Virus record (IMG/VR): IMGVR_UViG_2737471861_000023
Direction: 5' to 3' (one strand)
DNA from: a virus
Taxonomy: Duplodnaviria; Heunggongvirae; Uroviricota; Caudoviricetes
DNA length: 19,938 nt
Shown here: positions 4,089-10,608 of the stretch, piece by piece
Position numbering within the stretch: the stretch's first letter is position 1
How the letters are laid out: every line of letters begins with the position of its first letter
Program-made: the position numbers and the translations under genes
Notes under the pieces: model-generated
Databases searched by the model: none
What the model saw: only the letters and a program-made list of their open reading frames with translations
What the model was told of the DNA's origin: nothing

Positions 4089-4269
4089 AGGATGATCCTT
4101 TTTCTATGTGAATCATCACCACTGCTGACGCCAATCAGTATGGTGGTGAACTGTGCAGGGTTGGCGTAACCGGGAAAAAGGAACCGGCGCGGATCGCTCC
4201 GCCCCCACACAGCCCACCATTGAGATGTGACAGTGCAAACGACAATAAAAAAGACGCTGGCGCGTGAGG

Positions 4270-7224: not shown

Positions 7225-7380
7225 TTACTCCTCAGGTTCGTAAGCTGTGAAGACAGCGACCTCCGTCTGGCCGGTTCGGATTCGTACCTCGCAGAGGTCT
7301 TTCCTCGTTACCAGTGCCGTCACAATGACGGTTAAACAGATGACGATCAGGGCGATTAACATCGCCTTTTGCTGCTTCAT
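7225..7380 (-). CDS. hokD: Hok-family type I toxin, 51 aa (HokD/RelF-like)
   Basis: Translation MKQQKAMLIALIVICLTVIVTALVTRKDLCEVRIRTGQTEVAVFTAYEPEE matches HokD/RelF as recalled. Confidence 0.9.
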   Translation of the reverse strand: MKQQKAMLIALIVICLTVIVTALVTRKDLCEVRIRTGQTEVAVFTAYEPEE

Positions 7381-7560
7381 AGCCTGCTTCTCCTTGCCTT
7401 TCGGCACGTAAGAGGCTAACCTAGATTTGCCGTTCATAGATTGAGCCTCAGATTAATGTTAAGCGTCTTGCAGGACGCGTAATGTTAACTGGGGCTTTTC
7501 TCTATCTGCCTTTGGTGTTCATGCCTGAGGCAGATAGCCTCAATCACCCGCAGCAATTCT
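7381..7560 (-). promoter_or_regulatory. hok mRNA leader: in-frame 19-codon upstream extension (mok-like, ATG at 7437 with GAGG SD), 9-bp inverted repeat 7502..7510/7529..7537; Sok antisense not confidently placed
   Basis: ORF track 7225..7437 is in frame with hok; inverted repeat read from sequence. Confidence 0.4.
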
Positions 7561-7591
7561 ACTTAACTCACGTCACCTCGCCAATATAAAA

Positions 7592-7681
7592 TCAATCAGA
7601 AAGGCGATCCGTAAGAACAACAGCAAGACAATAAATTGCCATTACAGCCGCAATAGCTAGCGCATATTTGAGAACCAGCAC
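7592..7681 (-). CDS. Candidate small hydrophobic peptide, 29 aa (MLVLKYALAIAAVMAIYCLAVVLTDRLSD), GTG start
   Basis: Perfect AGGAGG SD with 5-nt spacer before GTG; single predicted TM helix with charged C-terminus; absent from the 60-aa-minimum ORF track; overlaps the track ORF 7596..7820 in another frame. Confidence 0.35.
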   Translation of the reverse strand: MLVLKYALAIAAVMAIYCLAVVLTDRLSD

Positions 7682-7995
7682 GACAACCTCCTGTATTGGA
7701 CGTACACCAGTCCTGATAAATATGAGGCTGTCTCATCATTGATTCAATATAACTATTGGGTATAGTTTCTGTGATTTTGTTCTGTAGAAATGGAACACAA
7801 CAACCAGTCTCCACCAGCACTTCTTTAAATACGCCAAGTCCGACGCAAGCTAACCTTCTAGTCCGCTTTGAGCGAACTGTGGAAGCTCGGAAATGTTGTT
7901 ACATCTGATGAAGGCATTACTCAAAGGAGGGGATAGTAGTCAACGTGGAGCAGGCCATGTTAGTATTTTTATACAATTCGACTAAGGGAAAAACA

Positions 7996-8865
7996 ATGAG
8001 GCTTTACATAATAGGAAATGGATTTGACATGCGTCATGGCTTACCAACAGGATACAAGCACTTTAAGTCGTATGTAGAAAAAAATGACCAAGATCTATAT
8101 GACGCGATAGAAGAATACATTCCTGCTGGGGACGAGTGGAATGAGTTAGAAAATGCTTTAGGTGAAATTGATTATGAGCTTATCCTTCAAAACAGTGAGA
8201 TATTTTTGGCTTCATACAATACCGATGATTGGAGCGATGCTTATCATCACGATTACCAATATGAAGTAAATAAAATCACACAAATGCTGTCAGCTCGTTT
8301 GAAGGAGCAATTCGCTGATTGGGTTAAAGGGATTAACATAGCCGATGCTTACAATCCTAAGCAATACATCCCGCCCATACCAAGAGAAAGCATCTATTTT
8401 TCATTTAATTATACAAATACCTTGCAGCAGATCTATGCCGTTCCAGACGAGCAAATCATACATATTCACGGCAATTGTAGTTACGATGACGATCTCATAC
8501 TTGGTCATAGTTTTAGGGTGGAAAAGTCACTAAATCCATATATAGGACCGGATCAAGATACAAGAATAGCAGAGGCATACGACAGAATAAACGAATACTT
8601 CGGTAATACATTCAAGCCCAGCGAAGACATAATTAAAGAAGAAAACGTTTTTTTCTCATCGCTTAAAAATGTGGACGAGGTCATCGTTTTAGGCCACTCG
8701 CTCGCCGAAGTTGACGGTGAATACTTTACTGAAATAAATAAAAGTATCCAAGAAAATGCTCGATGGATAATTGCTTTATATAGAGGTGAGAAAAAATCAG
8801 GCAGTTTAGAAGATTATGGTGTCAGAGGCTCAAATATTTCTTACGTACAGTATGAAGATATCTGA
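7996..8865 (+). CDS. AbiH-family abortive-infection protein homolog, 289 aa
   Basis: N-terminus MRLYIIGNGFDMRHGL carries the GNGFD motif I recall as diagnostic of the AbiH family; AGGGA SD; gene is AT-rich by eye. The track ORF start at 7945 (GTG) is considered an artefactual extension. Confidence 0.75.
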   Translation: MRLYIIGNGFDMRHGLPTGYKHFKSYVEKNDQDLYDAIEEYIPAGDEWNELENALGEIDYELILQNSEIFLASYNTDDWSDAYHHDYQYEVNKITQMLSARLKEQFADWVKGINIADAYNPKQYIPPIPRESIYFSFNYTNTLQQIYAVPDEQIIHIHGNCSYDDDLILGHSFRVEKSLNPYIGPDQDTRIAEAYDRINEYFGNTFKPSEDIIKEENVFFSSLKNVDEVIVLGHSLAEVDGEYFTEINKSIQENARWIIALYRGEKKSGSLEDYGVRGSNISYVQYEDI

Positions 8866-8954
8866 ATGAGACTTCATATTATAACTATAATTATGTAAAA
8901 AAGGCTGGTATTTTATACCTTGAGGAAAATAGATAAGAGGAATGAGGTTTGGTT

Positions 8955-10346
8955 ATGATGAATTATACTGATGAGTCAACTTTTCTTGAAAAGTACAAAC
9001 CGTTTAGGAAGTTTTGGACAATTTTATCACCTCATTATGTATCTTTAATGCATGCACTTGCCAAAATGATAAGGGGAGGGAATCCAATTCAAGAACTACC
9101 TTCCAATGATGAGGATTTTCTTGCAGAGTATGAAACCTGTCTCAAAAATTGGAAAGACTCACAAAAAATCATATCTTTTGAGATTATTATTCGGCTGAGA
9201 GATATAAAAAGATTGGAAACTGAAAAAAAAGAGCACCATCGAAACAAGGATAAAGAAAATAAAGAAAAGTGTATTGATGAAATAAGTTTAAAAAAAATTG
9301 AAATTCTTATTCTTCGCCGTTGTATTGACTCAATAATTTGGAGCATTCTTGATGAAGAACACTCTAGTTTGCGGCGTTTACCTATTAATGCAAGCAATGA
9401 CAATCTATCAGAAGATAACATAATTGATTCTATGGTCGCAGCCGATCTTATCAACCAGGACAAACACTCCGTAGCGATTGTCTCTGACATGAGCACATTT
9501 GTTCATGTGGGAGATTTAGTCACCTTTAATCTACTGGATGGCTTCCAGCTCGTGGAAGTTAAAACAGGTGAAAAGAATAATGAGCTTTATGAAGCTGCTG
9601 AATTTTCTGTTATCTCAGAATGTCCGCACTTTGAAGAAAACTTCATTAACAATATGCCTGACAATGATGTTAAGCAATTTAATCGCATAAAAAGGCAAAT
9701 CATTCGTGGCATGAATGTTCTGGAGGCGATTAATACTGGCGAGGGCTTTGACAACTTTCATCAGTCTAAAGTTAAAATCAATGAGATAGATCATCCGTCT
9801 GAATTTTATACCCACCGCTTAGTTAAAATGTGGGAGATTATTCGCGGAGGAAAAAATTGGGCAATTGATACTATTGATGAATGTTTGTTCTTAGGTATGT
9901 ACCGTGATTCTGAAATGGGCTTTGTTGCCTTCAATGGATGGATGGATAGTCTCGGTATAAAAAGCCCTGTTGTGAATATAAATGATTCATTCTTTGACCC
10001 TTTGTCTCGACCATTTATGAGTTTGCATCTGCCAACTGAAATGCTCTCCGATCTCATGTCGGGACAAATAATCATCGTCATGTGTTTTGACAATGAACTT
10101 TTTTTTCACCGTGCTAACAAAACGTACCCGGGTTTATATCTCCTTAGCGATGCAGCAAGAACAAAGCAGCCATTAGAAAATATTCTTCGTGTTGGTTCAC
10201 AAGGGATAGCTTCTTACGTAGATGGGAATACCAGCTTTTTAGGTAATGGTATTGAATCCCGTATCCTTTTCGATCAGCAACGACCCGACAACATTATTGA
10301 GTGGAGCTATGCTAGAAGCGATCTCAAAAAGCAACATGAAGCATAA
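8955..10346 (+). CDS. Hypothetical 463-aa protein co-transcribed with the AbiH homolog; candidate PD-(D/E)xK nuclease core (VHVGDLV...LVEVK) and Lys/Glu-rich region
   Basis: ATG at 8955 with GAGG SD, 89 nt after the AbiH stop, same strand; motif D189-x13-E203-V-K205 (track numbering) at nt about 9500..9565; no family recognised. Confidence 0.7.
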   Translation: MMNYTDESTFLEKYKPFRKFWTILSPHYVSLMHALAKMIRGGNPIQELPSNDEDFLAEYETCLKNWKDSQKIISFEIIIRLRDIKRLETEKKEHHRNKDKENKEKCIDEISLKKIEILILRRCIDSIIWSILDEEHSSLRRLPINASNDNLSEDNIIDSMVAADLINQDKHSVAIVSDMSTFVHVGDLVTFNLLDGFQLVEVKTGEKNNELYEAAEFSVISECPHFEENFINNMPDNDVKQFNRIKRQIIRGMNVLEAINTGEGFDNFHQSKVKINEIDHPSEFYTHRLVKMWEIIRGGKNWAIDTIDECLFLGMYRDSEMGFVAFNGWMDSLGIKSPVVNINDSFFDPLSRPFMSLHLPTEMLSDLMSGQIIIVMCFDNELFFHRANKTYPGLYLLSDAARTKQPLENILRVGSQGIASYVDGNTSFLGNGIESRILFDQQRPDNIIEWSYARSDLKKQHEA

Positions 10347-10608
10347 GCCGTTGGATGGGATTTCCCATGAATTGCCATGGATAATCTAGACACTTCGAGC
10401 CGTTGATAATGTTGATTTTCGTATTCTGTCGGTGGAGTATCCCGAAAGGTATAGAGCAAAACCTGGAGAAAACACACAGCATCCCATTTTAATCTTTAAC
10501 TCTGACCTTCCATAATGTCCGCTGTTGGCACAAAGCGGACAACCACGCTAGCTCTACCCTGTGCCACAAAATGTCAATTTGCATCTGAACTAATGCACTT
10601 TAATCTCG

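Follow-up and report, generated by a model that had tools for sequence, protein, structure and literature searches.

The locus described here raises the question whether a very short hydrophobic open reading frame (ORF), located beside a hok/mok/sok unit in a lambdoid prophage, is a translated gene in its own right, a second toxin, a regulatory appendage of hok or no gene at all. The ORF lies on the minus strand of a stretch of 19,938 nucleotides (nt) of caudoviricete virus DNA (IMG/VR record IMGVR_UViG_2737471861_000023), which was analysed at its full length and is called the window in the following. The gap that houses it spans 558 bp, from the start of mok/hok (7437) to the start of an AbiH-like gene on the plus strand (7996). 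We favour the reading that the ORF is genuine, is translated into a small membrane protein and does not depend on hok, to which we assign a probability of roughly 0.6; the ORF is likely a small membrane-protein gene with no described activity.

Read 5' to 3' on the minus strand, the sequence contains AGGAGG (7692-7687), TTGTC (7686-7682), GTG (7681-7679), 29 codons and TGA (7594-7592), exactly as stated in the first-pass annotation, a set of model-made remarks based on the letters of the window. The ORF lister returns the same frame and the same peptide, MLVLKYALAIAAVMAIYCLAVVLTDRLSD. Its mean Kyte-Doolittle hydropathy over residues 6-23 is 2.53, compatible with one transmembrane helix, which would be flanked by Lys5 on its N-terminal side and by the acidic tail DRLSD at the other end, the chain ending five residues past the helix. 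The single helix with a charged tail that had been predicted agrees with these values, and the position directly upstream of the hok leader is borne out, since the stop codon ends 7 nt before the -35 hexamer of the hok promoter (7584-7579). The surroundings had been described as free of other credible genes, and no other frame is open across homologous copies.

The possibility of a mere chance ORF, also raised in that annotation, does not survive a shuffling test. Our search criteria comprised AGGAGG 4-9 nt before a start codon, an ORF of 20-60 codons and an 18-residue hydrophobic stretch. The real 19.9-kb window holds one match, the ORF at 7592-7681, in comparison to none in 200 dinucleotide-preserving shuffles, so the ORF is more than a chance pattern. 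With a relaxed 5-mer Shine-Dalgarno (SD) sequence the sole extra match in the real window is Hok, and 2% of the shuffles become positive. The allele of the window is a rare one, with Tyr6 (codon 6, 7664-7666) and Thr24 (codon 24, 7610-7612) in place of Cys6 and Met24 of the common form. Tyr6 occurs in 4 of 232 harvested copies, chance matches included, and the exact 29-residue peptide of the window is not found in a collection of 15 billion proteins.

The signals for translation are retained in diverse sequence contexts. The upstream 85 nt and the first two codons of 218 copies, plus a copy on the Shigella virulence plasmid pINV, cluster into nine types with pairwise identities below 85%. GGAG is present at a constant distance from a GTG or ATG start in all nine types. 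CATATT is found in eight of them and TTG, exactly 17 nt further upstream, in seven; the 17-nt spacer is constant in length and freely variable in sequence. We infer from this arrangement a sigma-70-type promoter belonging to the ORF itself. No LexA box was detected at this promoter by eye. The 5' untranslated region (UTR) furthermore contains a TACGTC motif that can pair weakly with the SD (ACGUCC with GGAGGU), a pairing present in the minimum-free-energy fold.

Only GTG and ATG occur as start codons, the latter having originated at least twice, in the separate lineages of pINV and locus L240. Many alleles possess a second in-frame GTG directly 5' of the start (GTGGTG, at the position matching 7682-7684 of the window), and in one haplotype the adjacent upstream codon is ATG, resulting in a 30-residue product (also recovered as P0014). 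The exact start codon may thus differ between alleles. In the lineage L186/L222, which carries a 2-nt deletion in the ORF, the SD is changed from GGAGG to GAAAG, the -35 hexamer from TTGAAT to TTTCAT and the -10 hexamer from CATATT to TGTATT; this frameshifted lineage is the only one with a mutated SD. From its sequence it has the appearance of a unit no longer under selection.

For tests at the protein level, copies found by codon-pattern scans of viral and metagenome contigs were kept out of the coding statistics, because such scans fix positions 1 and 2 of the core codons. The ORF was instead re-sampled with frame-blind anchors, i.e. the -10 box upstream and the hok promoter downstream, with a variable gap in between. 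This sample comprises 213 copies in 63 haplotypes, with a gap of 169 nt in 209 copies and of 168 nt in four copies, none of whose indels affects the 29 codons. All 60 full-length haplotypes have an uninterrupted sense frame, i.e. the sample contains none of the frameshifts or stops that the first-pass annotation had named as evidence against a gene. The antisense frame is broken in 14 of the 60, the window included, and the remaining four frames are broken in all of them.

Two tests have discriminating power. In the first, the core codons 6-23 (frame-blind set and pINV) comprise 32 distinct single-base variants, 20 of them non-synonymous. None of these 20 introduces a stop or one of the residues D, E, K, R, N, Q, H and P, in comparison to 4.8 such changes expected under random mutation with the same transition/transversion mix (P=0.0016), the disallowed residue classes having been fixed after the variants were inspected. 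In the two remaining forward frames, this set of variants gives 9 of 17 and 9 of 29 disallowed changes. The peptide sequence is loosely constrained except for its hydrophobicity. The second, which is also the deepest comparison, concerns pINV, whose copy differs from the window by 19 nt in codons 2-29 in addition to the change of the start from GTG to ATG, and retains the SD, the length of 29 codons and the TGA stop. Seven codons show a synonymous change only, and 22 of 29 residues are identical, more than the 17.7 expected on average when these changes are placed at random (P=0.011; P=0.033 with the consensus as reference). Two further measures were discarded. Absence of indels was dropped as coding evidence, as flanking non-coding DNA is equally free of them, and synonymous/non-synonymous counting over the six frames proved uninformative; variants per site at codon positions 1, 2 and 3 amount to 0.55, 0.24 and 0.69.

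Several observations weigh against a translated gene, in addition to the late choice of residue classes just mentioned. The hok promoter and leader, the non-coding neighbours, are as free of indels as the ORF, so frame conservation alone is weak evidence. The ratio of synonymous to non-synonymous variants in the ORF frame (16:27) is no better than in some other frames, and pairwise tests other than that with pINV are not significant; the synonymous-site bias that was to be looked for shows in the pINV comparison and is weak in the population counts. The putative promoter matches the consensus at 8 of 12 positions, a score so low that the promoter scan did not list it. Upstream type t4 lacks this promoter, and the ninth type, whose junction lies about 30 nt from the start, would rely on read-through transcription. 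One metagenomic copy combines L19R with a lost stop, many prophages bear a truncated ORF without obvious consequence, and the searches revealed no relatives outside Escherichia/Shigella that would allow a deeper comparison.

Direct evidence of expression is thin. A genome-wide map of transcription start sites (TSSs) of Shigella M90T lists minus-strand starts at 90709, 90726 (icsP) and 91318 ('novel transcript'), and none at the predicted pINV promoter (PMC7132871); the nearest TSS on the same strand (91318) is located 321 nt upstream of the pINV ATG. In the ribosome profiling tables of the long-term evolution experiment, the copy of strain REL606, ECB_01533, has 3 footprint reads and 3.0 transcripts per million in replicate 1 of Ara-1 (PMC9645810). 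The DESeq2 ribosome baseMean of the same study is 4.7 for ECB_01533, 39.8 for hokD and 0.36-0.54 for the silent prophage neighbours ECB_01529-31 (PMC9645810). Ribosome profiling, proposed earlier as a check, thus gives a value above that of the silent neighbours and three reads in the one replicate. The footprints fit low-level occupancy in the lysogen and fall short of proving translation.

Observations of this kind lend substance to a serious, if in our judgement rather doubtful, rival, according to which the ORF is non-functional and lies in conserved boundary sequence. The block would hitch-hike with hok/sok and offer homology at which lambdoid prophages could exchange defence cargo, and frame and SD would be historical accidents that have not decayed so far. 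In agreement with it, the cargo of the adjoining slot differs in nearly every genome, with junctions even inside the ORF, the excess of synonymous variants is weak, the Shigella map has no TSS at the promoter and footprints are very few. The narrow taxonomic range, the low overall divergence and the fact that RefSeq never calls the ORF point the same way. Such an ORF is, however, unexpected by chance; its start was switched from GTG to ATG and not lost, and the peptide is still encoded on pINV, where hok and leader have decayed. Charged residues, proline and stops are avoided among the core substitutions, nine upstream contexts that are otherwise unrelated retain the SD, the start and the promoter hexamers, and in the one clearly dead lineage all signals are hit together. 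Conservation of frame, SD and start in diverse contexts, together with the avoidance of charge and proline in the core, leads us to prefer the small membrane protein among the options named at first pass.

The immediate vicinity of hok suggests a functional link, for which the distribution of the two units offers little. The ORF without hok is present on an E. coli chromosome (L009), a Shigella chromosome (L016) and pINV, and hok without an intact ORF occurs in E2348/69, O157:H7 and K-12 Qin; the hok leader is found in 4,337 genomes, the ORF in 1,542. As each occurs alone, their adjacency is a matter of physical linkage and not of function, and they are linked neighbours instead of a single system. 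The ORF is dispensable for the prophage. Its stop is located about 42 nt before the inferred start of the hok mRNA (7549, where the Rfam model begins), i.e. the ORF lies outside the hok transcript, yet on the same strand. According to the terminator scan, the interval from the ORF stop to the hok promoter contains no convincing terminator, and the ORF has none of its own, so its transcripts probably run on into hok.

This arrangement would also suit a role in the regulation of hok, with an upstream ORF or transcription unit that acts by occlusion of the promoter or through a 5'-extended, misfolding hok mRNA, and we regard such a role as very improbable. The ORF stop does precede the hok -35 by 7 nt on the same strand with no terminator in between, and the promoter region of the ORF shows complementarity of 11-14 nt with the hok leader. 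A pure occlusion device, however, needs no constrained peptide sequence, the ORF persists without hok, and complete hok/sok units are common without the ORF. The hok promoter itself lies between ORF and hok, and strict co-occurrence, expected of a leader, is not found. As an observation in its own right, the -10 region of the ORF (AGACAGCCTCATATTTAT, 7716-7733) is 86-91% complementary over 11-14 nt to the hok leader at 7532-7542 and 7444-7457, both segments containing GAGGCT; read-through transcripts may pair with the leader at these segments, or the match may be due to chance.

Truncated copies of the ORF share one breakpoint. E2348/69, a 216-kb plasmid and O157:H7 retain the last ~8 codons (...LMDRLSD*) together with hok, with unrelated cargo upstream, and L233 breaks at codons 22-24 from the opposite side. 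Three independent cargo fusions and the break in L233 suggest, as far as the sequences tell, that codons 22-24 are a preferred exchange point. The pINV locus (L010 2501-2760, equal to pWR501 220082-220340; CP037924 ~90730-91080) contains, next to the small ORF, a decayed but recognisable promoter of hok (TTGGCG...TAGAAT) and a remnant of its leader of about 70 nt, hok itself being lost. Judged by these remains, the region upstream of icsP in Shigella is a relic of a prophage hok locus. That region lies in the zone reported to be required for silencing of icsP by H-NS (PMC5192488). The hok relic lies inside this silencing zone, and the mapped icsP TSSs (90709 and 90726) are located directly past it.

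The ORF product had furthermore been likened to Hok at its N-terminus, and it could be the truncated relic of a duplicated Hok-family toxin gene. The likeness exists at eye level (IYCLAVVLT in the peptide, VICLTVIVT in Hok), but Pfam HOK_GEF (PF01848) gives no match at E<=10 for two alleles, in comparison to 3e-23 for the Hok of the window, BLASTP yields no alignment at E<=100, and hhalign returns a probability of 0.5% over 2 aligned columns. Descent from Hok is thereby effectively refuted. The peptide also falls short of the Hok/Gef layout, which comprises about 50 residues, a periplasmic C-terminal domain, an overlapping mok and Sok antisense RNA.

Resemblance to type I toxins is a matter of shape. 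The peptide is of the size and form of such toxins, i.e. a hydrophobic membrane peptide of less than 60 residues (29, with one hydrophobic helix), and it adjoins hok, itself a genuine type I toxin. A further toxin-antitoxin module of this class, with a membrane-depolarising peptide whose translation is limited by a small RNA (cis-antisense, or divergent and encoded nearby), would need a source of that RNA. The sole antisense promoter-like site, TTAACT-18-TAAAAT on the plus strand (7563-7592), is aimed into the 3' end of the ORF in the window allele, but a T that the site requires is replaced by C in roughly half of the alleles, where the -10 box reads TGAAAT (TTTCAT after the stop), and likewise in pINV. 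The plus-strand promoter that the first-pass annotation proposed to look for is hence allele-specific and not conserved. No direct repeats were found that would provide complementarity to a trans-acting small RNA of the IstR/OhsC/OrzO type. The ORF mRNA shows no unusual structure (fold z = -1.03; the fold is equally good or better in 24 of 200 shuffles), and Rfam at E<=10 detects sok alone (7375-7549), with no family covering the ORF. The peptide has an acidic C-terminal tail and no match in NCBIfam, a library that includes type I toxin models. All RNA tests are computational and leave room for an antitoxin RNA of unconventional type. On these grounds a second toxin, one of the options first considered, appears improbable.

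The ORF with its 5' UTR (7592-7720) is present in 1,542 of 5,426 complete E. coli genomes (~28%), in one to three copies each and almost always on the chromosome, as well as in the phages Tritos, Evi, mEp460_ev081 and HannyBb. A copy of 79% identity is located on pINV of Shigella and enteroinvasive E. coli (124 Shigella records), about 275 bp upstream of icsP. At least 80% of a 511-nt query (7440-7950) is found in 1,425 E. coli genomes at roughly 89-99% identity. A codon-degenerate scan for the core pattern in 185,579 species (one genome per species, GTDB) yielded five matches, all in DNA of Escherichia/Shigella type; three of them are short contigs binned into unrelated metagenome-assembled genomes, probably by mis-binning. 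An exhaustive phmmer search of 1.84 billion representatives recovered the same family only (82-97% identity). With the 40-residue read-through variant P0011 as query, one E. coli peptide was found and no others.

Pfam, NCBIfam, PHROGs and PADLOC do not contain any meaningful match to the peptide, the nearest profile scores being ATP synthase subunit c (E=0.0098, score 16, cut-off 116) and an unnamed PHROG (E=0.74). The peptide string is absent from the searchable literature; the paper on the Pro-SMP finder mentions HokD merely as an example. The claim that the ORF is unannotated applies to RefSeq/PGAP, where no feature lies under it among the matches listed in the 1,542 genomes, but not to all records. 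According to an exact look-up, some GenBank entries, including those of REL606 and BL21, label the peptide 'membrane protein' or 'conserved hypothetical protein', and the Prokka annotation of M90T pWR100 lists the pINV copy as CP037924_00134. ECB_01533 of REL606 stands beside hokD (ECB_01532) at the same 212-nt spacing as in the window. In Qin of K-12 MG1655 (L275 4120-4289), the match is limited to the hokD coding region plus 14 nt, and relBE takes the place of the promoter and leader of hok, of mok/sok and of the small ORF, which would explain why small-protein surveys of K-12 have missed it.

The window represents a lambdoid, Qin-like prophage, the main features of which around the ORF are given in Table 1. 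On the minus strand, the order starts with the replisome-organiser and DUF977 genes, followed by two cargo genes on the plus strand. Past hok, a lipoprotein-like ORF, DUF968 and further ORFs are found, and in a near-identical prophage of strain A20 RusA and Q come after DUF968. The ORF is thus positioned between the replication and the nin/Q modules of a lambdoid prophage.

Table 1. Coordinates of the ORF, its signals and neighbouring features in the window.
Feature	Position	Strand	Remarks
29-codon ORF with TGA	7592..7681	-	product MLVLKYALAIAAVMAIYCLAVVLTDRLSD, predicted single-pass membrane peptide
Shine-Dalgarno AGGAGG	7687..7692	-	5 nt ahead of GTG
TACGTC motif in 5' UTR	7699..7704	-	ACG columns near-invariant across upstream types
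Putative -10 hexamer CATATT	7719..7724	-	in 8/9 upstream types
Putative -35 hexamer TTGAAT (sigma-70-type promoter of the ORF)	7742..7747	-	TTG in 7/9 upstream types
Recurrent recombination junction, codons 22-24	7610..7618	-	around GTTCTTATGGA
hok promoter TTGGCG-17-TAGAAT	7556..7584	-	promoter scan; starts 7 nt past the ORF stop, separate from the ORF unit
sok/hok-leader (Rfam)	7375-7549	-	101.6 bits
mok/hok	7437-7225	-	Pfam HOK_GEF 3e-23
Unannotated conserved block with the ORF, ~435 bp	7440..7875	-	variable defence cargo upstream, mok/hok downstream
AbiH cargo gene	7996-8865	+	PADLOC 1.2e-27
Cargo gene, 465-residue protein	8949-10346	+	no match in Pfam or PADLOC

Between DUF977 of the replication module and the conserved block lies a slot whose cargo, variable from genome to genome, is mostly of the defence type. 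In the window (7876-10600) it comprises AbiH and the 465-residue protein; other loci (L003-L009, L272-L274) contain DUF4209, zeta toxin, a deaminase, SIR2 with NTP pyrophosphatase, AAA-ATPase with HNH, or QueH. The slot looks like a defence hotspot of lambdoid prophages, with the ORF-carrying block as its right border. The upstream half of the block (7745-7875 on the minus strand, ~130 nt) is as conserved as the ORF itself but is without a credible ORF, and neither strand folds significantly (z = -0.73 and -0.54). On the plus strand, a promoter-like site, TTGATT-16-TATAGT (7739-7766), faces the cargo and points away from the ORF; its TATAGT is also present in pINV. At the border of cargo and block (window 7856-7878; L002, L005, L008 and L009), several genomes possess a 9-bp inverted repeat, GTCCGCTTT-N6-AAAGCGGAC, with no T-run after it, of which the window retains the right arm only (TCGCTCAAAGCGGAC). 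This repeat could be a border or processing element. Elsewhere in the window, near the Q/late-gene end of the prophage, Rfam detects a C4 antisense RNA (RF01695) at 4139-4224 on the minus strand (74 bits, gathering score 45), a member of the P1/P7-type immunity RNA family.

Under the favoured reading, the ORF would be a gene of lambdoid (Qin-like) prophages for a 29-residue single-pass peptide of the inner membrane. According to the positive-inside rule, the N-terminus and Lys5 are predicted to face the inside and the acidic DRLSD tail the outside. Transcription would start at the weak promoter TTGAAT-17 nt-CATATT of the ORF itself, supplemented by read-through of the phage early-right operon, which runs in the same direction, and so little of the peptide would be expected in lysogens and more of it during lytic growth. 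The unit would be accessory and moron-like, physically linked to hok/mok/sok and functionally separate from it. As a best guess, the peptide may bind or perturb a component of the inner membrane to the benefit of the phage, as other small membrane peptides of phages or bacteria do, and would not be an RNA-controlled toxin. A bolder version, which we consider unlikely, makes it a phage-timed membrane effector without RNA antitoxin, produced in bulk solely upon transcription of the early-right operon after induction, to depolarise or remodel the inner membrane. Such an effector could aid the timing of lysis, block superinfection or cooperate with Hok, and the copy on pINV would then be a retained active gene with an influence on envelope physiology or on the control of icsP.

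The ORF is widespread, and mechanistically nothing about it is surprising so far. Should the peptide indeed be produced, more than a quarter of E. coli genomes (~28%), several cultured lambdoid phages and 124 Shigella plasmid records carry a gene that is absent from the RefSeq annotation examined and from all protein-family libraries searched, and the growing set of tiny membrane proteins gains an addition. If it is not made, the locus calls for caution, as a perfect SD and an open hydrophobic frame can then persist in a recombination boundary. The ORF also marks the right-hand border of an exchange slot for defence genes in lambdoid prophages.

Small membrane peptides of prophages are already known, and the ORF peptide belongs to no described family, its labels so far being those of a hypothetical or membrane protein. 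It has the size and helix shape of the type I toxins Hok/Gef, Ldr, TisB, ShoB, ZorO and Ibs and adjoins hok/mok/sok, but differs from them in its acidic tail and in the absence of an antitoxin RNA signal, a structured leader and homology. In comparison to hok/mok/sok of plasmid R1 and the chromosomal hokA-E, the ORF is the immediate neighbour of a full hok unit in the window, but lies outside the hok mRNA and upstream of its -35, and each occurs without the other. With prophage morons it shares variability among close relatives and its place between replication and nin/Q modules, and it may resemble them in its promoter-like signals and low ribosome occupancy in the lysogen; in contrast to them, it has no terminator of its own, and its putative promoter has no TSS in Shigella. 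Enterobacteria possess a number of small single-pass inner-membrane proteins, such as AcrZ, MgrB, MgtS, KdpF and CydX. The ORF product is set apart from these by being prophage-borne, present in ~28% of E. coli and outside any Pfam, NCBIfam or PHROGs family, but it shares with them a length of less than 50 residues, one hydrophobic helix, short charged ends and the fate of being missed by automatic annotation.

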